A stretch of 64,000 nucleotides of DNA, taken from the NCBI GenBank assembly GCA_964504365.1, contig CAZDDW010000005.1, forward strand, positions 1,630 through 65,629. Reading direction: 5' to 3'. The notes beneath the pieces were generated by a model. That model was not told where the DNA came from, searched no databases, and worked only from the letters and a program-made list of their open reading frames with translations. A program made the position numbers and the translations under genes. Below, piece after piece: positions 1,442 through 59,517 of this stretch (position 1 is its first letter; every line of letters begins with the position of its first letter). Source of the stretch: an uncultured Gammaproteobacteria bacterium. GTDB taxonomy: Bacteria > Patescibacteriota > Patescibacteriia > UBA9934 > CAZDDW01.

Positions 1442-1469
1442 TTGACAAAAATCGAAATCCTGCTAAGAT
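1442..1469 (+). promoter_or_regulatory. sigma70-like promoter TTGACA-16-TAAGAT for GC-rich ORF 1504
   Basis: gttgacaaaaatcgaaatcctgctaagat read directly. Confidence 0.5.
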
Positions 1470-1503
1470 CGACCTATCGAACCTTCAACATGGGAGAGGG
1501 ACA

Positions 1504-2178
1504 ATGTCCCAATTCAAATTGATCGCTCTGGTTGCTGAACCGGCCCGTGTCCGACGAACTCTGCTTCCAGCCCTGCTCGACTTCATCAGGGACAGCCCTG
1601 ACTTAGGGGCTTTGTTGCATTCGGTTGCCACAACAACGACAGACCAATTCTTGGCTGGACAACATCCACGACTGTTCAATTCAGTGCCAAATATTTCTCA
1701 GTTCAACATCATTGCAGACGCTGGTCTTTTTGTCTGCTACACCAGAACTGGTGAAGTTCGAAATGGTATCAAGCGAGGTGACATCGATCTGTTCTTGATG
1801 ACCGGTCATGTAATCGTGTTGGTCGGTCCGGAAGAGGCTGAACAGCTCAAGCAGAGCGAGTACACTGATCGACTGGAGATCATTGGGGTAACCATGGATG
1901 GCGAGGCTCGTCGTGAGGCCTTAGCCGAATCTCCACACATGGCTCCGTTGTACGAGGTCGAAGAAGCTGTTCGTGACTACATCAGGAACGAGCTGGAGGA
2001 AGACCATCGCTTCTTCGCTGAGAACAACAGGGGGGACGTGCTCACTCTGGTGCTTTTCCTGAGCGAGATGGGTGTGGTCAATATCGAGAGCGAGATGGCT
2101 GATCGGTTGACCACAGATGCCATGAGGATCCCGACTGGATACTGGGAGCCTGGTACTTCGCCGCCGTCCAAGCCCTAG
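1504..2178 (+). CDS. hypothetical protein (GC-rich islet orphan)
   Basis: 224-aa ORF with own promoter and terminator; elevated GC relative to flanks; no recognisable motif. Confidence 0.55.
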   Translation: MSQFKLIALVAEPARVRRTLLPALLDFIRDSPDLGALLHSVATTTTDQFLAGQHPRLFNSVPNISQFNIIADAGLFVCYTRTGEVRNGIKRGDIDLFLMTGHVIVLVGPEEAEQLKQSEYTDRLEIIGVTMDGEARREALAESPHMAPLYEVEEAVRDYIRNELEEDHRFFAENNRGDVLTLVLFLSEMGVVNIESEMADRLTTDAMRIPTGYWEPGTSPPSKP

Positions 2179-2212
2179 ACCCCACACCGCCCTTACCCGG
2201 CGGTTTTTCTAT

Positions 2213-2240
2213 TGACAAAAACCAAAAAAGTGAGTATACT
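2213..2240 (+). promoter_or_regulatory. promoter TTGACA-16-TATACT for tRNA-Glu
   Basis: attgacaaaaaccaaaaaagtgagtatact, about 20 nt upstream of tRNA. Confidence 0.6.
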
Positions 2241-2259
2241 CTCGACACAAACTAATCAA

Positions 2260-2334
2260 GGCCCCATCGTCTAGTGGTTAGGACGTAAGGTTCTCATCCT
2301 TGAAACCGGGGTTCGATTCCCCGTGGGGTCACCA
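2260..2334 (+). tRNA. tRNA-Glu (anticodon CUC), CCA encoded
   Basis: cloverleaf: acceptor GGCCCCA/TGGGGTC, anticodon loop TTCTCAT, T-arm GGGGTTCGATTCCCC, 3' ACCA. Confidence 0.85.
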
Positions 2335-2340
2335 ACAATC

Positions 2341-2367
2341 CGGCAGGCATCAGCCTGACGGGTTTTT
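2341..2367 (+). terminator. intrinsic terminator after tRNA-Glu
   Basis: caggc atcag cctg acgggttttt. Confidence 0.5.
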
Positions 2368-2480
2368 GATTTCCATGGGGATGAGAAGCCCGAATGGGTT
2401 CGATTGTCCGATCGAGCGAGAGGAGAGTCAAACTTGTTTGACCTCTCCCGAGCGAGGAGGCTCAATCCCGCCGTCGGCGG

Positions 2481-2500
2481 GATTCCCCGTGGGGTCACCA
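2481..2500 (+). repeat. 20-nt direct repeat of tRNA-Glu 3' end (att-like), followed by terminator 2501-2531
   Basis: gattccccgtggggtcacca identical to 2315-2334. Confidence 0.8.
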
Positions 2501-2542: not shown

Positions 2543-3445
2543 TTATTCAGCTGGGACGTATTGCCGGTGGCAGGTATAGTCGTAAACATCATCAGCGACC
2601 CTTTCAGCATTATTGTCATAACTACCAGCACAGATTTCAATCAGATCAGGATGATATGTAGCTTCATCCATCTGGTAATAACTCCACCAACTATGTCCAG
2701 CGTCACCGTATCCAGTACCCACTAAATGCTCGCCGTTAAGTGCACGTGGGTAGAATGTGAAAGCAAAATCCATCATGGACGAGATTTGGTTATAATAACG
2801 GATACTGCCATAAGCCTTTCCTGGTGCATAGTCACCAATAACTAAACCAAAATTGCTAGTTGTAAAGGCAAAAAACAACTCATCATCATCTTTACAAATT
2901 CGTGACAAGTACAGATCACTGTAATAAGTCGATTCACTGGTCTCAACTAACGCAGCGATTAATATATCAATATCAATGTTAGCCGGGGCAAATTCAGTTA
3001 TCAAGTCATTAAATATTTCTGTTTCTACGTCAGCAAGATCAATGCCTCCGTAAGCCCGTTCTAGATCTGGGTGGTAATTAAGATCGTAACAATTATCAAA
3101 AGGCTCTTTATCCATGCTAGACAAATAAGTAACTTCTTGCCAAAGATTTGTCACTCCTGGATCAACATCGTCAGATGTAATTGTCCCAGAAACGTCGTAA
3201 AGAATTGTGGCATCGGTTGTTGTTTCTGGTTCGTCTGCTTCCACCAGCATCAGATCATCTGCGGTGATAAGATTTGGGTCGTTAGCCTCATCTGATTCCA
3301 TGTTTGTCCAAATCAGAGCGATTACAAGCACGGCGATGATGATAAATAAAATCGGACCAATGATCCAATGGGCGATATGTGATTTGCACTTTGACTTAAC
3401 CTCAACTTCAGGTGTGGTCTCAGTAAGGTCTTGCATATTTGGCAT
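2543..3445 (-). CDS. hypothetical membrane-anchored acidic secreted protein
   Basis: 300 aa, N-terminal TM (WIIGPILFIIIAVLVIALIW), D/E-rich ectodomain. Confidence 0.6.
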   Translation of the reverse strand: MPNMQDLTETTPEVEVKSKCKSHIAHWIIGPILFIIIAVLVIALIWTNMESDEANDPNLITADDLMLVEADEPETTTDATILYDVSGTITSDDVDPGVTNLWQEVTYLSSMDKEPFDNCYDLNYHPDLERAYGGIDLADVETEIFNDLITEFAPANIDIDILIAALVETSESTYYSDLYLSRICKDDDELFFAFTTSNFGLVIGDYAPGKAYGSIRYYNQISSMMDFAFTFYPRALNGEHLVGTGYGDAGHSWWSYYQMDEATYHPDLIEICAGSYDNNAERVADDVYDYTCHRQYVPAE

Positions 3446-3476
3446 AAAAGTATTTAATAATAATCTAAGTCTACCT

Positions 3477-3507
3477 TAAAAGAAAAAAGCGCTCAAGGAG
3501 CGCCTAG
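3477..3507 (-). terminator. intrinsic terminator (gcgctccttgagcgc + T-run) for gene 3550-3768; near-duplicate at 3860-3885
   Basis: aaaaaagcgctcaaggagcgcc and aaaaaagcgctcaaggcgctt. Confidence 0.55.
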
Positions 3508-3549
3508 GAGTAAGGGCCGGTACGATTGTTGTATAGGGTGAGTAGTCGG

Positions 3550-3768
3550 TCAGTTCAGACCGAGTTTTTCGAGACTCTTGAACGGGACGACTACCACCAT
3601 GTGGTTCTTGTCGTCAGTCTGGATACCAACGTCACTTTCACCGTCCGGAGAACCCACCTTGAAGCGACGTGACTCACACCATCCCATGGCAGCGGTCATG
3701 GCATTTGACCGTGCGGTCGGATCATCGGCAGCGAAGTCGACTGTATGTACTGCTCTTCTAAGATCCAT
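3550..3768 (-). CDS. hypothetical small protein (GC-rich islet; own TTGACA-17-TACAAA promoter at ~3800-3835 and AGGAGG SD)
   Basis: 72 aa from MDLRRAVHTVDF; SD aggagg 7 nt upstream. Confidence 0.45.
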   Translation of the reverse strand: MDLRRAVHTVDFAADDPTARSNAMTAAMGWCESRRFKVGSPDGESDVGIQTDDKNHMVVVVPFKSLEKLGLN

Positions 3769-3884
3769 TGGCCTTCCTCCTGTTGTTTTGATCAGCAGTA
3801 TGGTTAATCTGCAAAGGTTTTGTATCACAAAGTGTGGTAAATGTCAATCCCTTATACAATAAAAGAAAAAAGCGCTCAAGGCGC

Positions 3885-4370
3885 TTAGAAGCAGGAGTCG
3901 GTTCGGAGTGTACAGAATCGGCGTATACCTGGCAGGTGAGCCAATGGGACGATCAGTAGGAACAGGGCGCCACAGGCCAGGGAACAGAGTGGGACGTTGA
4001 GAAGGCTGAGGAAGAGCAGGGCACCACTGACGGTCATGGCTTCTGGTACAGCAAGCCTTAGATAGGTCAGCATGAAGCCGATCGGTATGACTGATCCGGT
4101 GATCAAAGCCGATCCGAAATGCTGTAATTGGAAGTCGGTCATCTCAGTAACACTCATTGCGGCTTGGAGACCAAGGAAGATTCCATAGCCACAGACCATG
4201 GCCGCAACAATGTCCAGTGAGCGATGCCACATGATCGCTTCCGGGTTGATCCAGTTGTGCGGGTAGCCGATGAGGTGCCCGGCAAGCAGGCTGACGACGA
4301 ACATGAGCCCGGCGACGATGAGTAGAAGAGTGGTAGACAAAAGCCAGTATTTGAACGAGCTGATGCGCAT
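3885..4370 (-). CDS. hypothetical integral membrane protein (4-5 TM)
   Basis: 161 aa, hydrophobic throughout. Confidence 0.55.
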   Translation of the reverse strand: MRISSFKYWLLSTTLLLIVAGLMFVVSLLAGHLIGYPHNWINPEAIMWHRSLDIVAAMVCGYGIFLGLQAAMSVTEMTDFQLQHFGSALITGSVIPIGFMLTYLRLAVPEAMTVSGALLFLSLLNVPLCSLACGALFLLIVPLAHLPGIRRFCTLRTDSCF

Positions 4371-4471
4371 CTTTTTCTCCAGGTAAAGGTCTTCACAAAA
4401 AGTATCTCATTTGTTAAGCTCTGTCAACCATTTGCTTTAAGTTTAAAGCAGTAGTAAAATAGAAACACTAT

Positions 4472-7061: not shown

Positions 7062-8290
7062 AATTAGGAGACCTGATTCAATTATCTGGTGCAGGATTAA
7101 TGCGCAACAAGTCGCGCTCTATCTTGACCATGCTTGGGATTATTATTGGAATCGCTGCAGTGATGCTCATGCTTTCGATTGGAAAAGGTGCTGAAGGGCT
7201 GATTATTTCGCAGGTGGCAGATTTGGGTTCTGATTTAGTTTATGCCGAGCCAGGAAGCGGTGATGCTGATGAGGGGCCGCCAAATATTTTTGTTGAGCAG
7301 ACGCTAACCTTGGATGATGTTGAAGAACTGCGTAAGCACGATGGTTTTGTTGAGGTTGGTGCATTTTTGTATTCTGATGCTGTTGTTCAATACAGTACAG
7401 AAGAGGAGCGTTCGCAGATTGTTGGAACAACACCAGAGAATATTAGTATCTTCCCAGCAGATATGGCTGATGGGCGTTTTATTGATGAATCAGACGTTGA
7501 ATCAAATGCAACAGTGGCTGTGTTGGGAAGTCAGATTAAGCGGAAATTATTTGGTGATCAGGATCCGATTGGGCTGAGAATTAAAATTAAGAACACTCGT
7601 TTTAAAGTCATTGGTTACGTCGAAGAACAGGGAACACGCTTTTTTCAGAATTTAGATGAGCAGATTTATGTGCCAATTACCACGTTGCAAGATAAGGTTC
7701 TTGGCTTAGACTATATTAATTTCTTGGCTGCGCGCACGACTTTGCCGATTGATCTTGCTAAGGACGAAGTTCGCTTTGTGTTGCGTGATTCACATAACCT
7801 AGACAATCCAGAAGGGGATTTGAGTAAAGATGATTTCTTTGTCTCAACCCAGGAAGATGCGGTTGAGATTGTTGGTACAGTTACGAGTGTGCTAACTTTG
7901 TTGTTGTCGTCTGTTGCTGCAATTTCTTTGTTGGTTGGTGGAATTGGAATTATGAATATTATGCTTGTGTCAGTAACTGAGCGAACTCGTGAGATCGGAT
8001 TACGTAAAGCTGTTGGGGCTACTAGACAAGATATTCTAAGGCAGTTTTTGGCCGAAGCAGTTATGTTGACTTTGCTTGGGGGATTGATTGGAATTATTCT
8101 TGGTGGCGGCACTTCATTTTTGACCGCACTGGTATTGTCACAATTTTTAGAAGATTGGAAATTCTTTTTCCCGGCTGATGCTATGGTTTATGCGACCGTA
8201 ATTGCGGCGATTGTTGGTTTGGTATTTGGGATCTTCCCAGCTCGTCGAGCTGCGAAACTAGATCCGATTGATGCACTGCGGTACGAATAG
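7058..8290 (+). CDS. ABC transporter permease, FtsX/MacB-type with large periplasmic domain
   Basis: 410 aa; TM1, ~230-aa periplasmic domain, then 3 TM; translationally coupled to ATPase. Confidence 0.8.
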   Translation: MKLGDLIQLSGAGLMRNKSRSILTMLGIIIGIAAVMLMLSIGKGAEGLIISQVADLGSDLVYAEPGSGDADEGPPNIFVEQTLTLDDVEELRKHDGFVEVGAFLYSDAVVQYSTEEERSQIVGTTPENISIFPADMADGRFIDESDVESNATVAVLGSQIKRKLFGDQDPIGLRIKIKNTRFKVIGYVEEQGTRFFQNLDEQIYVPITTLQDKVLGLDYINFLAARTTLPIDLAKDEVRFVLRDSHNLDNPEGDLSKDDFFVSTQEDAVEIVGTVTSVLTLLLSSVAAISLLVGGIGIMNIMLVSVTERTREIGLRKAVGATRQDILRQFLAEAVMLTLLGGLIGIILGGGTSFLTALVLSQFLEDWKFFFPADAMVYATVIAAIVGLVFGIFPARRAAKLDPIDALRYE

Positions 8291-8312
8291 GTTTGATTTC
8301 TTTCGAAACATA

Positions 8313-8554
8313 GCGGAACCCTTCAGGGTTCCATTTTGTTTAGCCGGCCACGGATGACTCGGACATTCTTTTTGTGAGAAGCACTCGGCCTATTCGTAGA
8401 ATGATTAAAGAATGTTGTCAGGCCTCGTTCGGGTTCCGCCGGGACCGCCACCGTTAGTTGTAATACGAGATAATGATGTGGGCCCGGCTCCACATGTTCT
8501 CACAAAAAGAATATCCTCGTCATTTATATCTGACGATCAGAAAAGTGGCCGGCC
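8313..8554. repeat. ~210-bp TIR element (GCCGGCCAC...GTGGCCGGCC) with fused upstream terminator hairpin, copy 1
   Basis: near-identical copies at 27855-28300 and 41855-42090; internal inverted repeat ACATTCTTTTTGTGAGAA / TTCTCACAAAAAGAATAT. Confidence 0.8.
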
Positions 8555-8600
8555 AATTAAAAAGACCTCGCTGCGTGCGAGGTTTTGTGGTACGTGAGAT

Positions 8601-8903
8601 CTAGTCTTCGATCGGGATAGTGCAGAATCCTTCGGATTCGCGCGGCCCATCGAAGCTCAGCACGCCGAAAAACGGCTTGTTGTTGTGGGTGCCGAAGATC
8701 AGACCGCGACGATCAGGGAGGAGATGGTCGGTTCCATGGATTCTGACCGATACACTCTTCCAGCCGGTAGGATCAGTTTCGGATCCAGGTGGAATGAGTG
8801 AGATCATGATCGGAGCATCCATGTCCAGCGTTGCCTTGAGGTCGACCATGCTGTGGAACGTGTGCGAGATTCGTGTTGGGAATCGAACTGTATCTGGACT
8901 CAA
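8601..8903 (-). CDS. hypothetical small protein (GC-rich islet), probable TTG start after AAGGAGG
   Basis: ORF 8601-8939; SD aaggagg then attcca TTG; minus-strand TTGACA-17-TATTGT promoter overlapping kef promoter. Confidence 0.4.
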   Translation of the reverse strand: MSPDTVRFPTRISHTFHSMVDLKATLDMDAPIMISLIPPGSETDPTGWKSVSVRIHGTDHLLPDRRGLIFGTHNNKPFFGVLSFDGPRESEGFCTIPIED

Positions 8904-8973
8904 TGGAATCCTCCTTTGAAAACAGACAATATCATACACACCCCCTCATGTCAAGATATGCTATAATTAATCC

Positions 8974-10639: not shown

Positions 10640-10897
10640 ATGAATGATGTAAATATTTGCCAATCATGCGGCATGCCAATGAAGGAGGAAGTGGACTACG
10701 GGAAGACTGAGGATGGGAGTCCGAGCTATGAGTACTGTGCTCATTGTTTTCAGGAGGGGAAATTTACTTTTGAATGTGGATCAGTGGAGGAGTTTGCCGA
10801 ACATGTGCTTGAGGCAATGGCTGGATCTGAGGAAGCACCTGAAATGGACAAAGAAGAAATGTTGGTTGTTTTGAAAGGGTTGGGGAGGTGGAAGTAA
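10640..10897 (+). CDS. zinc-ribbon domain small protein
   Basis: 85 aa; CxxC...CxxC (CQSCGM ... CAHCF). Confidence 0.5.
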   Translation: MNDVNICQSCGMPMKEEVDYGKTEDGSPSYEYCAHCFQEGKFTFECGSVEEFAEHVLEAMAGSEEAPEMDKEEMLVVLKGLGRWK

Positions 10898-10898
10898 A

Positions 10899-10970
10899 AA
10901 AGTAGAAAGTAGAAGGTAGATAGTAGAAAGATTCAAAATCTTTCTACTTTTAACTTTCTACTCTCTACTA
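10899..10970. repeat. palindromic array of GTAGAxA heptamers (copy 1)
   Basis: agtagaa agtagaa ggtagat agtagaa ag - loop - inverted copies; related arrays at 38006-38083 and 40392-40478. Confidence 0.8.
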
Positions 10971-10974
10971 AAAA

Positions 10975-12101
10975 CAACAAAAAAACAGGACAAATGTCCT
11001 GTAGAAAGTACTCGAGCCCAGGGGCAGCTAACGACGTCGTCGTTAGCGCCCGCTGGGCTCTTGAGGCTGCAGGCCAAGGGTCGGCCTGCGAGGGTCGGTT
11101 TGTTGTCACCGACAGGTCATGTCAGAGCTGGGACTCCGCGGCATGTGCGTAGCCGCGGTTGTATGTGCCAGGAGCACTAATCGAAGCCGTCGATCCACCA
11201 GTACCACATCGTGATACCTCCTCGAGGATGAACATGCAGTGACCGGCCCGTTACGTGGGCGGCGCGCGTCGTCGGTTCGTGGGCGCGCCGCCGCCGTCGG
11301 GGGTGCCGGTCTTGGTTCTTGCTTCTTCAGAAAAAGAGATCAGGGCATATCGGAGCCCCAGGCCGACAGTGGAGTCGCCTTGACTCCTCTGAGCCCGTTC
11401 ATGCGCAGCTGTCATTGTTGGCTGTCTTTTATCAAAGCCTAGCCAGCTGTTAACGAACGAGCTACCGTCTCTCGTAGAGGATCAGCATTCTGCACTCCTT
11501 GGTGCGGTTATTTGCGCCGTGTCCTCGGTGGCGCTCATACTCCTGAGGGGTTGCTGTGGCAAACATGTGCGCTAGCCACGTCGCGCGCGGGCTCACCCCG
11601 CAACGCATCAATAGCCAAAGTGACTCGGAAATCGACGCATGTCACCTCCGTCCTGCACGTCGGCAGGACCATCTTGCCCCTTGGTCCGGGGCTGACCTCG
11701 ATCCCACCTGCCCCGTTGTCCCGGGATCAGGTGCGTGCCCGGCAACCGTGCCAGGCAGGAGCGGCCGCAGGCGGCGGCGGTGGGGGTAGAAGTTCCAGAA
11801 CTCCCCATCGCCGCACACCTGCGACACACTCGTCGTCCACCGGGTAGGTCACCCGGTTCTCCGGAGCGCAGCGCTCGATCAGCGGGCTCATCTCGCCCGC
11901 CGCGCGTTGCGAACCATTGATCTCACCAGCTGTGTCTCGGCGGTCTTGCCGCCGTCAGCCAGTATCACCGGTGTTTTAGGCGGGTTGATCCCCGCGGTTT
12001 ACCGGTTGTTGTTGTGGCCCCGCTGGCCCAGCTCTTCGCCAGCGGATACCGATCAAAGGAACGCACGATCAGCGCGGATGTGTCGCCACCTCCGGAATCG
12101 T
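10975..12101 (-). ncRNA. GC-rich (~65%) ~1.13-kb transcription unit without convincing ORF: candidate large structured ncRNA (alternative: decayed pseudogene)
   Basis: minus-strand TTGACA-17-TATATT promoter at 12108-12136; minus-strand intrinsic terminator caggacatttgtcctg + U-run at 10971-11001; only short overlapping ORFs in all six frames. Confidence 0.4.
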
Positions 12102-12194
12102 GAAGGTAATATAGCACAAAATAGTGCATATGTCAACCCTCAGTCCTAGAAAAAGGCTTATTTTAGTCAAGAATTAAGACCCTGTGGAAAACTC

Positions 12195-12235
12195 TTGACA
12201 GGCTTAAATTAGCACTCTATAATTAAGAGTGCTAA
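12195..12235 (+). promoter_or_regulatory. hrcA promoter (TTGACA-17-TATAAT) overlapping CIRCE operator TTAGCACTC-N9-GAGTGCTAA
   Basis: cttgacaggcttaaattagcactctataattaagagtgctaa; perfect 9-nt inverted repeat with 9-nt spacer. Confidence 0.9.
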
Positions 12236-12242
12236 AACACCT

Positions 12243-17129: not shown

Positions 17130-17194
17130 GTTGACATAAAGGAGTTTTTCAATTAAGCTGATTTCTCAGCTCTTTTTTGTTAGGAGAACAGATC

Positions 17195-17965
17195 ATGCCT
17201 GATCCATATATCAGCATTACTGACTTCACGACCCGAGAACAAGTACTTGAGATGTTGCAGGTACTCATCAGGGCCCAGGGTGCCAGGCAAACACACAAGC
17301 TTGGTGTTGGGGTGATGATGAGTCACAAGACTCTGAATGGGTTGCCAACCAAGTGGGCCGATGTTTTTCCGCACAACGAAGATGTTGCTGGAATTTTCGT
17401 AGATCATCCCTTGGCCTTTGGTACACTCCACTACGCAGACTTCAAAGGGATCGACGTGGCAGCCAACCTGGCTCAGGCAACTGGGTTTGGCGGGCCGAAC
17501 ATGCATGCCTTGCAACTGGACATGATTTGGCCGGATTCGCAGGTGCTGATTGACTACCGGATCAGATATCCGAAAATCAAGATCATCTTGCAGATCAACT
17601 CGCGTTCGCTGGACATGGTTGACAACGACCCGCGCAAGCTCTTGCGCGTTCTACGTGCCTACAACACGACCGTTGATTACGTGCTCTTGGACAAGAGTAT
17701 GGGTCGCGGTCAAGGTATGCAGGCCGAAGTACTCATGCCGTTTGTAGAAGCGATCGTCATGCACCGGTCTGATCTGGAGATCGTGGTGGCTGGCGGGCTT
17801 GGTCCCGATACCATGCACCTGGCCGCACCGCTTGTTGAGCGTTCTCAGCGCCTGAGTTTCTGTGCACAGGGCCAGATGAGGGCCAGTGGCAATGCCTTGG
17901 ATCCGATCGAATGGGACCGGGCAACAGAATATCTGCGCCAGTCAGTGGCGCTGCTCAGGAGGTAA
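17195..17965 (+). CDS. TIM-barrel protein resembling phosphoribosylanthranilate isomerase (TrpF-like), GC-rich islet
   Basis: YVLLDKSMGRGQG...VVAGGLGPDT...LSFCAQGQMRASGNALDP matches the TrpF C-terminal phosphate-binding pattern (VLLD..GG.G / AGGL.PDN / GLD..SGVE..pG.KD); promoter TTGACA-17-TAAGCT at ~17118-17150. Confidence 0.4.
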   Translation: MPDPYISITDFTTREQVLEMLQVLIRAQGARQTHKLGVGVMMSHKTLNGLPTKWADVFPHNEDVAGIFVDHPLAFGTLHYADFKGIDVAANLAQATGFGGPNMHALQLDMIWPDSQVLIDYRIRYPKIKIILQINSRSLDMVDNDPRKLLRVLRAYNTTVDYVLLDKSMGRGQGMQAEVLMPFVEAIVMHRSDLEIVVAGGLGPDTMHLAAPLVERSQRLSFCAQGQMRASGNALDPIEWDRATEYLRQSVALLRR

Positions 17966-17996
17966 ACTCACAGGACCAGCAATGGTCCTTTTTTAA
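17966..17996 (+). terminator. intrinsic terminator
   Basis: caggaccagcaatggtcctttttt. Confidence 0.6.
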
Positions 17997-19296: not shown

Positions 19297-19384
19297 GGAA
19301 TGACGCCCGCAAGGGCGTCATTTAAATTAAAACACCCCTACCGTTTCGTCCGGTGGGGGTTGTTGTGTTCTTGCGTTCGACGGC

Positions 19385-20119
19385 CTAGTCCTTGTCGTTG
19401 TCCTCGGGGATGAAGTCGACGGCGTACAACCGGACCTTGATGTCGTGTTCTCCGGTTTGCTCGACTTTGACCTCGACTATTCCGGCCCAGGCTTGGTTGA
19501 GCAGCAGGATCAGTTCTGTTGCCTGTTCCAGGTTCTCGAAGCCGTAGTTTTCGAGGTCTCTGAATTTGACCGAGAAGTCGTTGCATCCGCCGCGACGAGT
19601 GTTCTCGATCATGTGACTGAGTTCTTCCGGCAGTGTCCACCAGCCGTCGGGCTCGAGAGGGAACCAGCCCTTCTCTTCGGCAAAAGCCTGCAGTTCTTCC
19701 GGGATGCACTCCATCAGCTCCCGAACCATGTTCTCCCAGATTCGCTCGGCCAGGATCTGATGATGCCACTGCTCGTAGTGGGCGGCGGCCAAAGGCTTGG
19801 CCTTGACGTAGTCTCTCCAGCCTTTTTCGAACCAGTCCTTGAGGAGCTGAAGAGCCATCTGTGCCGGCTCGACTCCAGGTGCCAGTTGGATCCCCATGGT
19901 ATTTTCCAGAGTCTCCTCAGGAGTAAGCCGGGCCGCCCACCTGTTTTCGTTGTCCTTGGACAGGGTGATGGTCAGTTCAGAGCCGTGGGAGAGGACCACG
20001 ATTTCGGCTTGCGAGCACTCGGGATCCGCTGTTTCGGGGTGACGCACGTCGAAGATTGTTTCGGGAGGGAAGACGTATCCAGTAATCTTGCGAACCCAAT
20101 CCAAATCCAATTGTTCCAT
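19385..20119 (-). CDS. paralog A of GC-rich domain-shuffled family (shared N-domain, distinct C-terminal region)
   Basis: AEIVVLSHGSELTITLSKDNENRWAARL matches D AEVVVAGRNVTIELAEITPNSWAAWEV and B ADIVIDDIEYRLCLRLDSGAWRSHVF; GGAG SD; co-transcribed with B. Confidence 0.6.
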   Translation of the reverse strand: MEQLDLDWVRKITGYVFPPETIFDVRHPETADPECSQAEIVVLSHGSELTITLSKDNENRWAARLTPEETLENTMGIQLAPGVEPAQMALQLLKDWFEKGWRDYVKAKPLAAAHYEQWHHQILAERIWENMVRELMECIPEELQAFAEEKGWFPLEPDGWWTLPEELSHMIENTRRGGCNDFSVKFRDLENYGFENLEQATELILLLNQAWAGIVEVKVEQTGEHDIKVRLYAVDFIPEDNDKD

Positions 20120-20158
20120 GATTGTTCTCCAGTTTCTTGGCCTAGAAAGGACCGGTTT

Positions 20159-20791
20159 CTATCGGTTCAGTAGTGCCTGGCGGAAAGCCTCGAGGACCTC
20201 GCGCGCGGGTGTTGTGGAATCAAAGCCGTATGTACCCCAGTCTTCATCTGTCCCAAGTAGCGTGGCCTCCCATGGTCCAATGATCCCGTGTGACCTTCTG
20301 AAGCTGAAGCTCACCAGCTCGTACATTTGGACCGTGACCAGGAAGGTGTGCTCGAGTTCCGGGTGTGGCATGACTCGATGGTCTCCACCTTGCCAGACCT
20401 GTCCGACCAGAGCATCGAGCTCATCGCGGGTGATCAAGGGCAGGGCCGGCACTTCGGAATGGTTGGGCGTCGTCGTTTCCTGTTCTCGTCTATCGAGGGC
20501 AAAGGAGGCCAGTTCTCTGATGGCTCCGCTGAGTATTTCGTAGGGGTTGCAGGAACCAAATTTATCGGGGACGACCGTGGGATCCTCGTCGGTATTTGCG
20601 TCGTTGATGGTTGCTGAGAAGACATGACTTCGCCAAGCACCAGAATCGAGTCGTAGACAAAGTCGATATTCGATATCATCGATTACAATGTCAGCGTAGT
20701 AGGCATCAGGTTGTCCAAGGCAACCAACCTTCTTTACGTAGCTAGTGAAGGCGTCTCGGATCTCATTTTCGAAGAAGTGTGAATTCATCAT
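20159..20791 (-). CDS. paralog B (shared N-domain + shared C-domain)
   Basis: start MMNSHFFENEIRDAF; C-terminal ITRDELDALVGQVW...TTPAREVLEAFRQALLNR aligns with C and D; promoter TTGACA-17-TATCTT at 20847-20875 (minus). Confidence 0.6.
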   Translation of the reverse strand: MMNSHFFENEIRDAFTSYVKKVGCLGQPDAYYADIVIDDIEYRLCLRLDSGAWRSHVFSATINDANTDEDPTVVPDKFGSCNPYEILSGAIRELASFALDRREQETTTPNHSEVPALPLITRDELDALVGQVWQGGDHRVMPHPELEHTFLVTVQMYELVSFSFRRSHGIIGPWEATLLGTDEDWGTYGFDSTTPAREVLEAFRQALLNR

Positions 20792-21035
20792 TGTCTCGGA
20801 TTGTTGCGAGAATTTTATTGTTGAAATGACCGGAAAATTACTAAGCAAGATAACACAAAAATAAGCTCGTGTCAAGGCAAGCAAGCTTATTTGTAGGGTG
20901 TTTCTTGAAATTAAAGAACCCGCAGCGTTGCACTGCGGGTCTGAGCAAAGAAAGGGCCTTGGGGTTGGTCAAGAATACCTGCTCATTGAGATTGTTCGAT
21001 CAGCAATTATTACTAACAAATCTCAAGGTCGCTAT

Positions 21036-21722
21036 CTAGCCCATCAGTCTCTTCTTCAACCCAACCAGGATTTCTCTGGCCGAGGTGCTGTGATCCGTGG
21101 CACTTTCCAGGAATTTGCTCTGTGGCTCGTGGGCTCTCCACTGGCCGAGCGAAACGCTCATCTCGATGGTCATCAGCTCGAACATGAAGACATCGGCCTT
21201 GAACACCGGAGCTGCATCCGCACCTTCGTTCCTGGTAGCACGCACGTCATCGAAGACCTGCCTGACAGCAGTGTCGAACTGCTCCAGGGTCATGGGCGGA
21301 GGCGCGGGCAACTCTTCGCTCACGGGCGCTGCCGGCCGGCTTGCCTTCCTTGGTGCCGGGCTGGTGCTCTTGCCTTCGCGCAACGGGATGCGGGTGAGCA
21401 CACCATCTTCGGCAATCACACCTTCGGGCGTGACCTGGAAGAGCCAATCGTTGATCTGGATGTAGCACTGACGATCACGGTGACCGTACCAGAGATCGAC
21501 TACACCGTAATGGGCCGAAACACTGGCCGCGCTCAGGTACATGTATGGATCGCGGCGGGTTCCGCTGCCTCTTTCGTAAGGCTGTCCGGTGGATCCCTTG
21601 GAGTACCGACGATGCCGCCGTCTGGCGTCGTAGACATGATCCGGTTTGAGCGTGGTCGTCTGACCCTTGTGCGATGCGTGGATGTTCGGGGCTCGTGCTT
21701 GTGTTTCTCCGAAAGTCGGCAT
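21036..21722 (-). CDS. paralog C (distinct Arg-rich N-region, Pro-rich linker, shared C-domain)
   Basis: MTLEQFDTAVRQVFDDVR...STSAREILVGLKKRLMG aligns with D LSLDQFTAAIERVFNDVR...TTPYDVLKALKAKLMG; promoter TTGACA-17-TATGCT 21782-21810 (minus); terminator 20917-20947. Confidence 0.6.
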   Translation of the reverse strand: MPTFGETQARAPNIHASHKGQTTTLKPDHVYDARRRHRRYSKGSTGQPYERGSGTRRDPYMYLSAASVSAHYGVVDLWYGHRDRQCYIQINDWLFQVTPEGVIAEDGVLTRIPLREGKSTSPAPRKASRPAAPVSEELPAPPPMTLEQFDTAVRQVFDDVRATRNEGADAAPVFKADVFMFELMTIEMSVSLGQWRAHEPQSKFLESATDHSTSAREILVGLKKRLMG

Positions 21723-21862
21723 GGCTAGCTCCTTTGATTGGGTTGCAAGAATCGTGTTAGGAATGAACAGAAATAGATATCAGCATAGCATGAATAAGCC
21801 CGTTTGTCAAGGCAATTAAAACACCCCCACCGTTTCGTCCGGCGGGGGCGTTTGTTCTGGCT

Positions 21863-22555
21863 CTAGCCCATCAGTTTTGCTTTCAGGGCTTTGAGCACGT
21901 CGTACGGCGTGGTATCAGCTGACTCGGCGTGGACGCGGGTATTGCTCACAGGCTCGCGGGCCAGCCACTTGCCGTGCCAGAGACTGAGCTCGATGGTAAC
22001 TGGATCCATCATGACCACCTCAGCCATGAAGGTTGTTCTTTCCAGCCTTGGGCCTCGAACGTCGTTGAAGACCCGCTCGATTGCGGCTGTGAACTGGTCC
22101 AGGCTGAGCTTGTCTTGAGCAACCGGCTCAGGCTCGTTCTTGGGCAAGGGCTTGGCCGTCGTACTTGTGGCCGATGCCTTTTTCCGCCTGTTCGTTGGCG
22201 GTGGCACCCAGGGCGTAACCGCACCACGCATTGGTGCACTTGGCTGGGAGGGTCGAGGACTGGGCTGCGGACGTCCACCAAATTCAAGTACTGTTTTCAG
22301 ACTGACCAAAGCCATCCTGGATGACGACTGACCAGAAACCAGTGCTGGGTAAGGGTTGCCTGGAGCAACTTCCCAAGCAGCCCAGCTGTTAGGAGTTATC
22401 TCAGCTAGCTCGATCGTAACGTTTCTGCCAGCGACAACGACTTCTGCTTGAGGGATCCAGTTGCTACCAAGCGCGATGGTGTGTATTGAGACAACGTGCG
22501 CAAAGATCGCCCTGACTTCTGCTTCGAACCACCTGAGTATTTTGCTCTGGCTCAT
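21863..22555 (-). CDS. paralog D (shared N-domain, Pro-rich linker, shared C-domain)
   Basis: start MSQSKILRWFEAEVRAIF; promoter TTGACA-17-TATGCT 22596-22624 (minus); terminator 21815-21855 nearly identical to terminator of A (19335-19375). Confidence 0.6.
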   Translation of the reverse strand: MSQSKILRWFEAEVRAIFAHVVSIHTIALGSNWIPQAEVVVAGRNVTIELAEITPNSWAAWEVAPGNPYPALVSGQSSSRMALVSLKTVLEFGGRPQPSPRPSQPSAPMRGAVTPWVPPPTNRRKKASATSTTAKPLPKNEPEPVAQDKLSLDQFTAAIERVFNDVRGPRLERTTFMAEVVMMDPVTIELSLWHGKWLAREPVSNTRVHAESADTTPYDVLKALKAKLMG

Positions 22556-22674
22556 GATTGATTCCTGTTGGTTGATTGAATAGAACGAAGAAACCAGCAT
22601 AGCAATTTTTGTGCCGCTTGTCAAGCTTATACACTAGTTGTTTAAGCTTGATTATGTTAAACTGAATCCATTGT

Positions 22675-24077: not shown

Positions 24078-24596
24078 ATGCCTAATCCGTTGCGGAAAAA
24101 TACAGCCGAAGAAGTAAAGCCAGAGGTTGCACCCGTTGCTAAGCCTGAAGTTGAGGTAAAAAAGGAGGTTGCTGAAAAACCAGTGGAAGCGCCTAAGGAA
24201 GTTAGAAAAGACGATGAGGTTGCTGAGGTGTCACGTAAGGCTGCGCCGGCCCAAGCGAAGGATGATCAGGTAAGTGTTCTTCCTGAAGAAGACGCGCTGA
24301 CCGAAGAGGTTGAGGATATTTTAGAAGAAGATTTGGACGAAATGTATCATCAGTTACCACCGGACAAACAGCTTGAATTCAAGACTAAAGGTGAAGAAAC
24401 GGTTGGAATGATTACTCAGATGGTTGAATCAACTAAAGTGAAGAGTGGTAAGATTGTTGGCTGGATCAAGGGTTGGTTAAAGTTGATTCCAGGAGTAAAT
24501 AAATTTTTCTTAGAACAAGAGGCAAAAATAAAAACAGATAAAATTCTCTTACTTGCTGATGAAGAAAAAAAGAAGCGGGGAGAGATGATTGATTAA
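24078..24596 (+). CDS. hypothetical acidic protein with amphipathic C-terminal segment, upstream of T4CP-like ATPase
   Basis: 172 aa; KPEVxxKxEV repeats; overlaps next gene by 8 nt. Confidence 0.5.
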   Translation: MPNPLRKNTAEEVKPEVAPVAKPEVEVKKEVAEKPVEAPKEVRKDDEVAEVSRKAAPAQAKDDQVSVLPEEDALTEEVEDILEEDLDEMYHQLPPDKQLEFKTKGEETVGMITQMVESTKVKSGKIVGWIKGWLKLIPGVNKFFLEQEAKIKTDKILLLADEEKKKRGEMID

Positions 24597-27854: not shown

Positions 27855-28300
27855 GTCAGAAACGTAGCGGAACCCTTTAGGGTTCCATTTTGTTTTTGGC
27901 CGGCCATGAGGACTCAGACATTCTTTTTGTGAGAAACACTCGGCCAGGACTAGGTAAAGTGAAAGAAAGATATCAAGGCCTCGTTCGATGTTCCGCCGGG
28001 ACCGCCACCTTTATGTGATTAAACGAGATGATGGTGTGGGCCCGGCTCCACGTGTTCTCTCAAAAAGAATATCCTCGTCCTTTAATATGGCCGGCCACCC
28101 ATCTTGCCGTAAGAATAAAATGACGAAGGGTTTTGAATTGAGGTACGATCGGAGGCCGGGCTGCCAATATTTCTTCGAGGTCCCCACAACGGTAATCGTC
28201 CGGCCGACGCCGAGTGAGGCCCGATATCATCCCTTCATCACACCACGAATAGGCCGAACGCTACCACAATCAAAACCCTGAGTCATTCAGTGGCCGGCCA
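27855..28300. repeat. TIR element copy 2 with fused terminator hairpin and a ~200-bp nested insertion bounded by GGCCGGCC
   Basis: module 27898-28098 matches copies 1 and 3; extra module 28099-28300 ends in a second GTGGCCGGCCAATAAAG end. Confidence 0.75.
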
Positions 28301-28332: not shown

Positions 28333-28361
28333 TTGACAATCGGCCTCTTTTGTGTTATTTT
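28333..28361 (+). promoter_or_regulatory. promoter TTGACA-17-TATTTT for ORF 28422
   Basis: ggccttgacaatcggcctcttttgtgttatttt. Confidence 0.5.
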
Positions 28362-28421
28362 TAAGCGTCTCTTGCACCTGCAAGGGTTGTTCGTTTAACG
28401 GCTTTTTGCCAAAGCAACAAG

Positions 28422-47000: not shown

Positions 47001-47051
47001 AACGTGGCTTAATATAACAAAAAAGACCCTGCTTGAACAGGGTCTGAGTGG

Positions 47052-47582
47052 TTACTGGCCGAGACAGGTCAGGTAGACCGATCGTTCGGCTGCCAGGATC
47101 GGGTCGTCGATCTGCATCTCATGTGGACAGGCTTCTACTTGGCTGACCTCGGTTTGACACTGGTGTTCTACTTCGGGCAGGGTCAGGTGAGCACCAGCGT
47201 GAACCAGACTGGCCGCGATCCGGCAGAGCTCTTGTTGTTGTCCGTCATCACTGTCGAATAGCTCGACATTGACGATGATCTCGTCCGGAAATGTGTCTGG
47301 GATCGCTTCTTCACTGATTCGTTGGTCAACAGGCAGGCCGCAGGAGATGATACTCTGCTCAGCCGCGCTGATTGCCTGACTCAGTTTGAGCGAGGTCGGC
47401 TCAGGCCACTCATGCTTGAAACGCTGAGTTGCCAGGTCCTCGAGGTCCTTGGCCGTGTCCAAAGCCAGGTCCAGGCTCTGACATTGATCCGAGTCGCATT
47501 CGGCAAACCAATGCCAGTCATCGAAGACACAGCCACTGGTGCCGAGTGTGCAGACAAGTAAGATGAAAAAGATCGGACGCAT
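47052..47582 (-). CDS. hypothetical acidic Cys-containing lipoprotein (GC-rich islet)
   Basis: signal + lipobox LGTSGC; 176 aa. Confidence 0.5.
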   Translation of the reverse strand: MRPIFFILLVCTLGTSGCVFDDWHWFAECDSDQCQSLDLALDTAKDLEDLATQRFKHEWPEPTSLKLSQAISAAEQSIISCGLPVDQRISEEAIPDTFPDEIIVNVELFDSDDGQQQELCRIAASLVHAGAHLTLPEVEHQCQTEVSQVEACPHEMQIDDPILAAERSVYLTCLGQ

Positions 47583-47690
47583 GTGGTTCTCCCCTCATTT
47601 GAGTTGGTAATGCAGGAGTCTACAGGAAGCAGAAAAACTTGTCAAGTGGTTTGTGGGTAAATTTTGGTAGTTATGCTAAAATATTCAAGT

Positions 47691-56426: not shown

Positions 56427-56435
56427 CCCATAACT

Positions 56436-57200: not shown

Positions 57201-57206
57201 AGAACT

Positions 57207-57557
57207 ATGCGCCACCGAAATACTACAAAGAGTTTGGGACGAAAAGTTGGACCACGTAAGGCTTTGATGAAAAGTTTGGCGCAGAATTTGATTTTACATG
57301 AAAAGATTAAGACCACTGAGGCCAAGGCTAAAGTGTTGCGACCGTATGTTGAGCGAATGGTAACCACTGCTAAGAAGGGTGACCTTACTGCTCGTCGTGC
57401 CTTGATGAAGGATTTGACCACTGAGGGTGCTGTTAAGAAAGCTCTTGAAGTAATTGGTCCTCGTTATAAGACTCGGGCAGGTGGTTATACACGAATTATT
57501 AAAGTTGGTACTCGTCAAGGTGATGGTGCTGAAATGGTTCAGATTGAATTTGTATAA
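57207..57557 (+). CDS. rplQ: 50S ribosomal protein L17
   Basis: MRHRNTTKSLGRKVGPRKALMKSLAQNLILHEKIKTT. Confidence 0.95.
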   Translation: MRHRNTTKSLGRKVGPRKALMKSLAQNLILHEKIKTTEAKAKVLRPYVERMVTTAKKGDLTARRALMKDLTTEGAVKKALEVIGPRYKTRAGGYTRIIKVGTRQGDGAEMVQIEFV

Positions 57558-57558
57558 T

Positions 57559-57921
57559 ATGGCATTAAAAGCAGATCGAAAAACACAACAGCTAGATGCA
57601 ACCGACCAGGCTATGGGTCGATTGGCTTCTGAGATTGCTCAGATTTTGATTGGCAAGCACAAGCCCGAGTATGTGCCACATTTTGATATGGGTGATAGCG
57701 TTGTTGTTTCTAATATCGATAAAATGAAAGTGACTGGAAAGAAGATGGAGCAGAAAGAGTACATCCGACATACTGGATATCCAGGTGGAATTCGACGAGT
57801 TTTGCTCGGCAAGCTCTGGGGTACAAAAGGTCCTGCTGAAGCTTTGCGACGTGCTGTATATAATATGCTTCCAAAGAATAAATTGCGAAATGGTCGTATG
57901 AAGCGATTGATTATCAAGTAA
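57559..57921 (+). CDS. rplM: 50S ribosomal protein L13
   Basis: start MALKADRKTQQLDATDQ. Confidence 0.9.
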   Translation: MALKADRKTQQLDATDQAMGRLASEIAQILIGKHKPEYVPHFDMGDSVVVSNIDKMKVTGKKMEQKEYIRHTGYPGGIRRVLLGKLWGTKGPAEALRRAVYNMLPKNKLRNGRMKRLIIK

Positions 57922-57923
57922 TT

Positions 57924-58328
57924 ATGGCTGATACTAAGAAAAAATATATTGAGGCAATTGGGCGACGCAAAACTGCTATTGCACGTGTGCGATTGTTTGA
58001 AGGCGGAAAAGGAAACTTTGAAGTAAATGAGAAAGAAGCTAACGTATTTTTTCCAGTTTACGAACATCAGGAAATGTTAACCGCGCCATTTACCGCAGTT
58101 GGTCAGGATGGAAAGTTTGATATAACAGTACATGTTCGCGGTGGTGGAATTAATGGTCAGGCTGAGGCTGTTCGATTGGGAGTTGCTCGTGCTTTGGAAA
58201 AGTATAATCCAGAATTCCGAGCCAGTTTGAAAAAGCTTGGTTACCTGAAGCGAGATGACCGAAAGCGCGAACGAAAGAAACCGGGATTGAAAGCAGCTCG
58301 TCGCGCACCACAGTGGAGCAAGCGATAA
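57924..58328 (+). CDS. rpsI: 30S ribosomal protein S9
   Basis: C-terminal KKPGLKAARRAPQWSKR. Confidence 0.95.
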   Translation: MADTKKKYIEAIGRRKTAIARVRLFEGGKGNFEVNEKEANVFFPVYEHQEMLTAPFTAVGQDGKFDITVHVRGGGINGQAEAVRLGVARALEKYNPEFRASLKKLGYLKRDDRKRERKKPGLKAARRAPQWSKR

Positions 58329-58339
58329 ATTTAAAAACA

Positions 58340-58372
58340 AAAAAGACGCCTTCTAGGGCGTCTTTTTGATTC
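58340..58372 (+). terminator. intrinsic terminator after rpsI (second hairpin 58385-58410 serves minus-strand gene)
   Basis: agacgccttctagggcgtctttttg. Confidence 0.7.
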
Positions 58373-58407
58373 AATAGGTCAAATAAAAATCCGCTCAACA
58401 GAGCGGA

Positions 58408-59517
58408 CTAGAAGCGGAAGGTGGGTCCGAACTGGACACCAGCCCAGAAGCCGCGGCGGTCGCCACCGACTGTGGCCTCCAGGTTCAGGCCGAACTTGTC
58501 GGTTAGCATCAGGTCGATTCCACCGATGAGCACACCACCAGGCGCGGTCATCTCAGCACCGAAGCTGATCAGGAACGCGCCTCCGACGTAGGGTTGAGCC
58601 TTCTTGTCGCCGAAGCGATATCGGGCGCCAACACGGGCATGGGGCATGAGCATCAGCCAGCCACCAAGGTCAGACTCGAAGCGGACCATGTTGGCACCGC
58701 CACCGAGATCCAGCTCCAGACCCTTGACCAAGCGGACGTGTCCTCGCAGGCCGAAGTTCAGGTACTGGGCACCGTGTGCCTGGGCAAAGCCGATCACGCC
58801 GAGAGAAAGACCACCAGGACTTGGCTTGTCACCGTTCCCGTTGGTCACTGGCGGATCCGGCTCACGGTAGACCTGGACCAACAGTTTGTCACCACTGACA
58901 TTGACCACTCGCGTGAATACGCCTTGAGTGGTTGCATACTGGATTACGTGGATGCCTGGTCGAATCGGGATCGTGCCCGATACGCCAGGGTTGCGTGCTG
59001 TGCCATCCAAGGAGAAGTAGAGCACATCATCGTCGATCAAGTCGTAGTTGAGCTCGATCAACGGAAGTGCCATCACTTCACCCTTGGCAATCAGGAAAGC
59101 CTGCTGCGGATCTGGTGGGTAGTCAGTGTCCCAGGGCAAGGTCGGGTCGATGATCAGTGCACGTCGAAAGTTGTTCAGCGCGCCCTCGCGATCACCAGCG
59201 TTGAAGCTGGCCATGCCTTGGAAGTAGAACAGGTTGATCAGGGTATCTCGATCAATGTCCAGGTCGTTCATGCAGGACAGAGCAGTCATTGCCCGTCCGA
59301 GCGTGCCGCGGGCATTCTCGTCGCTCAGAGCATCGATCAGCTCGATTCCTCGAGCCAACTCAGCGGCAATGTCCAACCCGATCAGAGACGAGTCAAGGCA
59401 GGTTATTTCCTGGAAATCGCCGATGATCTGTACGAACTCTGGCGGATCTTCACTCTCCTGTGCTCCCACAGGCAAGCAGAAACTGAACAGTGCGAGAATT
59501 GCAGTATATCGCAACAT
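58408..59517 (-). CDS. secreted protein with N-terminal TPR-like region and Gly/Ala-rich beta-rich C-terminal domain ending in Phe (OMP beta-barrel-like), GC-rich islet
   Basis: signal MLRYTAILALFSFCLPVGAQ; C-terminus ...GVQFGPTFRF; alternating hydrophobic pattern in last ~200 aa. Confidence 0.5.
   Translation of the reverse strand: MLRYTAILALFSFCLPVGAQESEDPPEFVQIIGDFQEITCLDSSLIGLDIAAELARGIELIDALSDENARGTLGRAMTALSCMNDLDIDRDTLINLFYFQGMASFNAGDREGALNNFRRALIIDPTLPWDTDYPPDPQQAFLIAKGEVMALPLIELNYDLIDDDVLYFSLDGTARNPGVSGTIPIRPGIHVIQYATTQGVFTRVVNVSGDKLLVQVYREPDPPVTNGNGDKPSPGGLSLGVIGFAQAHGAQYLNFGLRGHVRLVKGLELDLGGGANMVRFESDLGGWLMLMPHARVGARYRFGDKKAQPYVGGAFLISFGAEMTAPGGVLIGGIDLMLTDKFGLNLEATVGGDRRGFWAGVQFGPTFRF

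Follow-up and report, generated by a model that had tools for sequence, protein, structure and literature searches.

GC-rich single-gene units between the housekeeping operons of a Candidatus Uhrbacteria genome and their probable horizontal origin

Bacteria of the candidate phyla radiation (CPR), whose genomes are very small and streamlined, are believed to live in attachment to other cells. Genes received from neighbouring organisms provide some of the rare hints about the identity of these partners and the way in which contact with them is made. Here, we describe a stretch of 64,000 nucleotides from such a genome (assembly GCA_964504365.1, contig CAZDDW010000005.1; hereafter “the window”), in which about fourteen GC-rich units, including one long non-coding block and amounting to 9.8 kb or 15% of the sequence, are scattered among conserved operons. 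Most of these units are single genes provided with their own promoter and terminator; at three places they are inserted into a gene order conserved in related genomes, one of them has its closest relatives in a distant taxon, and a related species carries a cassette of the same kind at another junction. We consider it probable, and hold with moderate confidence, that these islets are accessory genes acquired horizontally from GC-richer organisms and fixed as autonomous units. The original prediction, made from the letters of this DNA, had spoken of horizontally acquired or lineage-specific accessory genes punctuating an otherwise streamlined chromosome, a description that is supported by the synteny, the third-position composition, the foreign relatives of one product and the cassette of the related species. 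The analysis covers the 64 kb of the genome itself and, in the relatives, 10 kb on either side of two marker genes.

Composition, authenticity and anatomy of the units

The GC content of the whole window is 45.7%, and that of the window without the ten blocks originally listed is 43.8%. All ten blocks are indeed GC-rich, with values, in coordinate order, of 52.9, 53.0, 54.1, 62.1, 54.2, 54.9, 57.6, 59.5, 55.7 and 57.9%; the 58-66% first attributed to them was overstated, the measured range being 52.9-62.1%, because 59-71% GC is found in 200-nt sub-windows only and the block at 10975-12101 alone exceeds 60% as a whole. The contrast with a backbone put at about 42-45% GC is real, even if the mosaic is weaker than claimed: backbone genes have a mean GC of 43.4% (standard deviation 2.0, maximum 47.1%), and the GC-rich units, at 52.9-59.7%, lie 4.7-8 standard deviations higher. 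The list of blocks also needed correction, since 10975-12101 holds no open reading frame (ORF), 19385-22555 consists of four paralogous genes and a further unit, 3885-4370 on the minus strand, had been overlooked.

At third codon positions (GC3) the two classes do not overlap, the 13 GC-rich ORFs having values of 0.548-0.743 and the 52 backbone genes of at most 0.520 (Mann-Whitney, U maximal, p=1.6e-8), so that the compositional comparison proposed with the original prediction yields a highly significant deviation. First and second codon positions (GC1 and GC2) of the GC-rich ORFs are ordinary and the excess resides almost wholly in the third, which means that the units owe their GC richness mainly to the use of C- or G-ending codons. 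The relative synonymous codon usage (RSCU) of the unit set correlates with that of the backbone at r=-0.09, with that of a 70%-GC contig at r=0.73 and with that of high-GC Uhrbacteria at r=0.55-0.63; Uhrbacteria as a whole range from about 40% to about 60% in genomic GC. The units therefore deviate in both GC3 and codon usage, as horizontally acquired islets do, and the matching of codon usage (0.55-0.63 versus 0.73) did not pinpoint a donor.

A skew of this kind might also mark a native class of genes, inherited vertically, evolving fast and specific to the lineage, in which C- and G-rich codons are kept by a gene-specific force such as weak or absent selection for AT-ending codons, GC-biased gene conversion or selection on mRNA structure. 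This is the main rival to horizontal acquisition, and we judge it unlikely. The lowest GC3 of the window is that of the ribosomal protein genes (0.20-0.33), from which it follows that a preference for AT-ending codons is linked to expression here, and all the units have a C3 > G3 bias in common; however, other lineage-specific hypothetical genes of the backbone (hyp300, 497, 456, 217, 183, 208 and 364) have an ordinary GC3 of 0.30-0.46, and the separation of the two GC3 distributions is complete.

Since the source is a metagenome contig, it is also conceivable that the blocks are chimeras, contaminants or chance ORFs, the more so because GC-rich DNA gives long ORFs on both strands and one block, named NC11k here, is indeed non-coding. 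This artefactual explanation is refuted for the coding units, and its overall probability appears to us negligible. The window is 100% identical over 21.4 kb to the 98.5-kb JGI contig Ga0118720_1000196, which encodes the same cysteinyl-tRNA synthetase (CysRS), and at least four independent ENA/JGI assemblies, from other samples and centres, are 99.6-100% identical to it with a handful of variants. The last coding unit, GC10, follows rpsI in 10 of 10 contigs that encode an identical ribosomal protein S9, and NC11k is identical (100%) in three further assemblies. A chimeric assembly is excluded because the blocks, with the same junctions at 99.6-100% identity, recur in independent assemblies. 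Furthermore, the phase pattern GC3 > GC1 > GC2 is found on the strand that bears the promoter, Shine-Dalgarno (SD) sequence and terminator; a 516-codon ORF, such as that of GC7, would arise by chance at this composition with a probability, by our estimate, of about 1e-8; protein homologues exist for GC5, GC6 and GC10; and the structure models of GC6 and GC10 are confident (pLDDT 93 and 75). Long antisense shadow ORFs had been noted in the GC-rich stretches and do occur, for example at 29151-30002 (minus strand), 58594-59550 (plus) and 19445-20173 (plus).

The coding units, with the anatomy that can be read from their sequence signals, are the following:

GC1 unit, 1442-2204, plus strand: promoter 1442-1469, ORF 1504-2178 (224 aa, GC 52.9%, GC3 0.59), terminator 2186-2204
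GC2 unit, 3487-3849, minus strand: promoter 3849-3821, SD AGGAGGAAGG, ORF 3550-3768 (72 aa, GC 53%), terminator 3505-3487
m161 unit, 3870-4427, minus strand: promoter 4427-4399, ORF 3885-4370 (161 aa, GC 54.5%, GC3 0.67), terminator 3886-3870
GC3 unit, 8565-8954, minus strand: promoter 8954-8926, SD AAGGAGGA, TTG start at 8903, ORF 8601-8903 (100 aa, GC 54.1%, GC3 0.62), terminator 8583-8565
GC5 unit, 17131-17989, plus strand: promoter 17131-17159, ORF 17195-17965 (256 aa, GC3 0.64), terminator 17972-17989
GC6b-GC6a bicistron, 19334-20875, minus strand: promoter 20875-20847, GC6b 20159-20791 (210 aa), GC6a 19385-20119 (244 aa, GC3 0.72), bidirectional terminator 19334-19360
GC6c unit, 20917-21810, minus strand: promoter 21810-21782, ORF 21036-21722 (228 aa, GC3 0.70), terminator 20941-20917
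GC6d unit, 21831-22624, minus strand: promoter 22624-22596, ORF 21863-22555/22600, terminator 21831-21850
GC7 unit, 28333-30045, plus strand: GCCTTGACAA promoter 28333-28361, ORF 28437/28449-29999 (516-520 aa, GC 57.9%, GC3 0.74), terminator 30026-30045
GC8 unit, 42435-42821, minus strand: promoter 42821-42793, SD AAGGAGGA, ORF 42460-42768 (102 aa, GC 59.5%), terminator 42452-42435
GC9 unit, 47024-47645, minus strand: promoter 47645-47617, ORF 47052-47582 (176 aa, GC3 0.64), terminator 47045-47024
GC10 unit, 58388-59593, minus strand: promoter 59593-59565, ORF 58408-59517 (369 aa, GC 57.9%, GC3 0.68), terminator 58409-58388

The motif TTGAC[AT]-N15-19-TAnnnT occurs at 22 sites in the window, 21 of them intergenic. 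Thirteen lie directly 5' of GC1, m161, GC3, NC11k, GC5, GC6b, GC6c, GC6d, GC7, GC8, GC9, GC10 and a small RNA-like unit described below, and others lie upstream of tRNA-Glu, hrcA, the sigma-factor gene, rpsM and further genes; the promoter of GC2 is TTGACA-N17-TACAAA. GGAG-type ribosome-binding sites precede 11 of the 13 GC-rich starts, an intrinsic terminator is found 3' of essentially every unit, and GC6b-GC6a is the only apparent bicistron. The claim that most blocks have their own TTGACA-type promoter, SD and intrinsic terminator thus holds, nearly all the units having these signals, with a promoter of the form TTGACA-N17-TAnnnT, from which their expression would follow.

Gene order in related genomes and relatives of the products

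The genomes closest to the window by CysRS are metagenome-assembled genomes of Candidatus Uhrbacteria, one of which, L005 (JBDRNK01), has 76% identity and the others 55-64%; a metagenome scan with HrcA retrieved relatives at 50% identity or less only. In about 30 Uhrbacteria genomes the order m185-sigma-antisigma-[gap]-CysS-p172-VirD4-p205-DnaX is conserved, the gap before CysS being variable (0.7-2.2 kb) and of host GC. GC5 (17195-17965), the GC6 array (19385-22600) and GC7 (28449-29999) are insertions into this order. GC5 sits between m185 and sigma and is present here and in L005 only, apart from a distant copy in the genome L023; the GC6 domain, when every ORF of the compared loci is searched with a profile, is found here and in L005 only; GC7 belongs to this organism alone, about 25 relatives having none at the p205-DnaX junction. 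Elsewhere m185 directly adjoins sigma, as p205 does DnaX. The comparison covers the junctions of GC5, GC6 and GC7, the relatives' DNA including none of the GC1-3, GC8, GC9 and GC10 junctions.

Further evidence comes from a second relative, L047 (CAYZPO01), whose DnaK and HrcA are 93% and 80% identical to those of the window. L047 lacks GC5 and GC6, and it carries a different cassette of 0.5 kb (3284-3826 of its contig) between dnaK and dnaJ, which are adjacent genes in the window. This cassette has a GC content of 64%, a GC3 of 0.80 versus 0.35-0.39 in the flanking genes, a 118-aa Cys-rich ORF, the promoter contexts CCTTGACAA and CCCTTGACAA and its own SD. It follows that GC-rich single-gene cassettes come and go at different junctions within the clade, and the comparison of synteny proposed with the original prediction does reveal differences in cassette presence among relatives. 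These insertions and differences between species also argue against a native class of genes, as do the genes that occupy the same variable gap in other Uhrbacteria and have host GC. As a separate observation, the CysRS of L047 is only 54% identical to that of the window despite the 93% identity of DnaK, which hints at a replacement of cysS in L047. The conserved p172-VirD4-p205 cluster contains a VirD4/TraG-like coupling ATPase with DUF8128 (24589-27159, plus strand) and may be part of a CPR apparatus for the transfer of DNA or protein.

The unit with the most informative relatives is GC10. Its predicted product comprises a signal peptide, seen as a hydrophobic leader at the start of the sequence, TPR-like helices, a beta-sandwich, an 8-stranded OmpA-like beta-barrel and a terminal FRF; in the AlphaFold2 model (pLDDT 75) the barrel strands lie at 235-368. 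The top Foldseek matches are OmpA (1qjp), OmpX, NspA and OmpW (E 1e-5 to 1e-4, TM to target 0.6-0.68), with a sequence identity to the solved barrels of only 11-16%. The modelled strands, the C-terminal aromatic residue and the signal peptide are those expected of an 8-stranded OmpA-like barrel. GC10 would thus resemble the OmpA/OmpX/NspA barrels in its signal peptide, eight antiparallel strands and C-terminal aromatic residue, and differ from them in the N-terminal TPR-like domain and beta-sandwich and in its CPR host. CPR bacteria are generally thought to have no outer membrane; no BamA-like gene was found within the 64-kb window.

Six relatives of GC10, of about 500 aa and about 45% identical over the full length, were found, all of them in non-CPR contigs of 70-71% GC, for example in GCA_964644235.1, where they adjoin ybaB-recR, opp transporter genes and TPR genes in a local synteny kept across three lineages. 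The closest homologues of GC10 are thus in a distant taxon, and the homologue set is of diderm type. The conserved synteny in these contigs points to a transfer from this 70%-GC clade, or from a relative of it, into the Uhrbacterium, and the restriction of the relatives to non-CPR genomes of 70% GC is a further point against a native class.

GC5 is one of a widespread family that comprises 1438 clusters at 50% identity and occurs in CPR bacteria, and its syntenic orthologue in L005 shares 62% amino acid identity. Its match to the NCBIfam PRAI model (E=0.0017, 17.8 bits) is far under the cut-off of 181; the family profile finds RPE and PRAI in the PDB at E=0.03-0.05, in the C-terminal phosphate-binding part only, and of 50 members examined 3 are recognised by Pfam PRAI. 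These data suggest a weak similarity of the family to PRAI/RPE-like (beta-alpha)8-barrels.

GC6a-d are paralogues (blastp E down to 1e-15) and are related to a three-domain gene of L005 (1e-23). They share a domain of about 90 aa, modelled as a helix, five strands and a helix, which has no significant match in the PDB or BFVD and would therefore be a new domain spread over four tandem genes; GC6d contains two such domains with a Pro-rich linker between them. Strains differ at a handful of sites, which cluster in GC6c and GC6d and so fit dispensable genes: in one strain GC6c has a 14-nt deletion across its start codon, and domain 1 of GC6d shows a 17-nt insertion and a 75-nt deletion. The strain indels map at 21713-21726 (GC6c start), 22439-22513 and about 22465 (GC6d domain 1) and 27112-27127 (C-terminus of the VirD4-like gene), and some of them may be assembly artefacts.

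As for the remaining products, GC7 matched only itself among 5.8 billion clusters and is an orphan. GC1, GC2, GC3, m161, GC8 and GC9 have no match in family libraries (Pfam, NCBIfam, PHROGs, PADLOC), in the PDB or in phage or plasmid collections; searches of the units against PADLOC, PHROGs and NCBIfam gave nothing beyond the weak PRAI match of GC5, a tblastn comparison of the concatenated unit proteins with phages and plasmids gave no match, and neither did IMG/VR scans with GC7 and GC1. Several secreted proteins or lipoproteins had been anticipated; on reading the sequences, signal peptides were recognised in three products only, GC7, GC9 (whose N-terminus, with LGTSGC, is lipoprotein-like) and GC10. 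The sequence of m161 reads like that of a multi-pass membrane protein. GC7, GC9, GC10 and m161 probably encode envelope or secreted proteins and GC5 an enzyme, several further products having no assigned role.

Non-coding units, repeats and traces of mobility

Two units of the window are of a non-coding kind:

NC11k, 10985-12136, minus strand: non-coding transcription unit of about 1.1 kb, 62% GC; promoter 12136-12108, terminator 11002-10985
Candidate small RNA of about 200 nt, 42105-42362, minus strand: GC 53%; GCCTTGACAA promoter 42362-42334, terminator 42126-42105

NC11k is a well-delimited transcription unit devoid of coding potential. Its promoter has 11 of 12 consensus matches plus TG, and its minus strand contains no ORF longer than 75 aa, no codon periodicity and stop codons at random density. 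That it is a pseudogene is not supported, as its stop-free fragments have no Pfam match and tblastx gave only scattered, composition-driven matches. The mean folding z-score of -3.1 on the minus strand, versus -0.5 to -1.8 for GC-rich coding controls, is suggestive of structure beyond that of the controls. L005 (JBDRNK010000016.1) retains the promoter and the initial 18 nt of the transcript, and L047 the promoter; the next approximately 190 nt of the L005 counterpart are GC-rich and non-coding in appearance, and cannot be aligned with NC11k. No Rfam family matches NC11k even at E<=1, and neither sequence conservation nor a known RNA family thus marks it as a large structured RNA. Within it, at 11177-11209 (minus strand), a mini-ORF of 10 codons, MWYWWIDGFD, with three Trp codons, is preceded by a strong SD (GAGGAGG, 11218-11224), and nothing lies downstream of it to be regulated. 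The promoter of NC11k stands back-to-back with that of hrcA, which bears, at 12195-12240, a perfect CIRCE-like operator (TTAGCACTC-N9-GAGTGCTAA) kept in L005 (about 290-340) and L047 (about 150-197), that is, in three Uhrbacteria species.

The candidate RNA at 42.1-42.3 kb has no ORF longer than 24 aa, and its ends pair into a closed, rod-like predicted fold (-87 kcal/mol, z -3.8); it matches no Rfam family, SRP and 6S included. Rfam searches of the whole window, at gathering and E-value thresholds, and of sub-regions found two tRNAs only.

The modular anatomy of the units raises the possibility that they are the cargo of mobile elements, whether as phage morons, as relics of integrative elements or as cassettes of a capture system that supplies the promoter. 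Each unit is in fact a promoter-ORF-terminator module of deviant GC, which is the anatomy of a moron, and the context CCTTGACA occurs in exactly 4 copies in the 64 kb, all 4 belonging to promoters of GC-rich units, and the L047 cassette, which is independent of these, has it as well; this sharing is, however, partly due to the paralogy of GC6b, GC6c and GC6d. An att-like repeat lies beside GC1, GC2 and m161, and MITE-like repeats adjoin GC3, GC7 and GC8, but a survey of ORFs and Pfam domains found neither an integrase or transposase nor any phage gene for structure or replication in the window, the searches of PHROGs, phages and IMG/VR were negative, and the units occur one by one across 58 kb rather than in a cluster. 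For these reasons we attach little credence to an origin as mobile-element cargo.

The repeats themselves are as follows. The last 20 nt of tRNA-Glu(CTC), at 2315-2334, are repeated exactly at 2481-2500, 166 nt downstream, with 0 such repeats expected by chance; the copy resembles an att scar, encloses just 146 nt and has no integrase near it. A family of repeats of about 260 nt, 80-87% identical, is present at 8310-8574 (plus strand), 27863-28125 (plus), 28304-28076 (minus) and 41846-42110 (plus), and in L047 at 8149-8330 (plus) and 8516-8311 (minus). Its members have imperfect terminal inverted repeats of about 45 nt (GCCGGCCAC…GTGGCCGGC) and a long predicted stem, always follow immediately on the stop codon of a gene on the plus strand and form tail-to-tail pairs, here as well as in another species of Uhrbacteria. 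They have no Rfam match and look like miniature inverted-repeat transposable elements (MITEs). Hairpin elements of the CCCCTCCTTTCGAAGGAGGGG type occur at 1-45, 52-92, 31820-31864, about 31885-31930 and 38813-38857; one copy lies within a RimK-like ORF (38071-39003, minus strand), where it encodes …PPPVPPSKGGR…, which suggests an in-frame insertion of the repeat into a coding gene. Finally, AT-rich palindromes of AGTAGAAAG/CTTTCTACT units, at 10892-10969, 38008-38081 and 40390-40467, lie between convergent genes and look like a repeated bidirectional terminator element.

Origin of the units and comparison with known systems

The housekeeping operons of the window form a conserved, AT-leaning backbone of 43.7% GC, and the units, mostly monocistronic, stand at operon junctions. 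Under horizontal acquisition, they would have been taken up piecemeal and at different times from GC-richer organisms. Each unit would have been fixed with a sigma-70 promoter of host type, a ribosome-binding site and a terminator, and would be only partly ameliorated toward the composition of the host. After acquisition, GC6a-d may have arisen by duplication, with decay in GC6c and GC6d as the strain indels suggest, and NC11k may be a decayed unit. We infer on this basis the foreign origin of the units besides GC10, as well as the direction and timing of the transfers.

Several points weigh against this reading. A foreign origin is directly shown for one unit only: a foreign homologue set exists for GC10 alone, and the identity of about 45% implies that the true donor is unsampled. 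GC5, whose family exceeds 1400 clusters, is not an orphan, and as this family is common in CPR bacteria and its nearest named relative is a Candidatus Parcubacteria protein, any transfer of it may have taken place within the CPR. The orphan status of GC1, GC2, GC3, m161, GC6, GC8 and GC9 comes from family libraries only, and one of the “cassettes” is non-coding. The mobility genes and flanking repeats that accompany acquired islets are lacking, no direct repeat flanking a unit having been found except that of tRNA-Glu, and the absence of mobility genes equally suits a native class. Promoters, ribosome-binding sites and terminators are AT-rich and of host type, as native genes would have them, and the GC richness stops at the limits of the transcribed body; the mere insertion of foreign fragments would not, taken alone, account for this.

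The most serious objection comes from L005, the only relative that shares cassettes. A host-like composition of its orthologues would have counted against the original prediction, but they are still enriched in GC3 (0.46 for GC5 and 0.50 for GC6, versus 0.30-0.39), although synonymous divergence (dS) between the window and L005 is saturated, at 1.2 to infinity. A GC3 excess kept in two species over such a divergence calls for a donor of very high GC or else for a force that upholds GC3, the latter being what the native class supposes. A rough estimate of decay would permit the retention if the GC3 of the donor was near 0.9, and would equally permit a native codon bias.

A bolder version of the acquisition scenario would have GC-rich fragments, possibly from a diderm host, of about 70% GC, of this putative episymbiont, captured behind a common sCCTTGACAA-type promoter at operon junctions that differ between sister species; GC10 would then act on the outer membrane of the host, and NC11k would be either a fresh, not yet coding capture or a new large RNA. 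We regard this scenario as highly speculative and quite improbable.

The window offers notable and testable leads, in particular an OmpA-like barrel (GC10) encoded by a CPR bacterium, the domain of GC6a-d, which would be new, the NC11k unit of 1.1 kb and the MITE-like repeats. Together with these leads, our findings add a documented case, and current views stand.

Among known systems, phage morons, a concept due to Hendrix and Juhala, are autonomous promoter-ORF-terminator modules of deviant GC located between conserved genes. The units are like morons in having their own promoter, their own terminator and one gene of deviant composition, in lying between conserved genes and in their patchy distribution among relatives. 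Unlike morons they are chromosomal, lie between housekeeping operons rather than within a phage or prophage, their neighbours being murF-like, ABC transporter, hrcA-grpE-dnaK-dnaJ, cysS, dnaX and ribosomal protein genes, and no phage genes or homologues were found for them. With tRNA-linked genomic islands they share an atypical GC, accessory or secreted products and, near three units, the 20-nt repeat of tRNA-Glu; they differ in having no integrase, in measuring less than 2 kb, in being dispersed and in a repeat that spans only 146 nt.

The closest parallel is with the islets of Patescibacteria. According to a recent survey, transferred genes and islands account for up to 13% of genome length in Patescibacteria, and the donors are mostly other Patescibacteria and in some cases diderm bacteria (PMC12455944, mSystems 2025). 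The present case is similar in its streamlined CPR genome, in the approximately 15% of the window that is foreign by composition and in one unit with relatives of diderm type; it differs in consisting of single-gene units of 0.3-1.7 kb with their own promoter and terminator, all GC-skewed and with no donor recovered, and the anatomy given here, at the level of synteny and promoters, appears to be finer than that of the survey. The window is thus a well-resolved further case of a documented phenomenon, and not a new kind of system.

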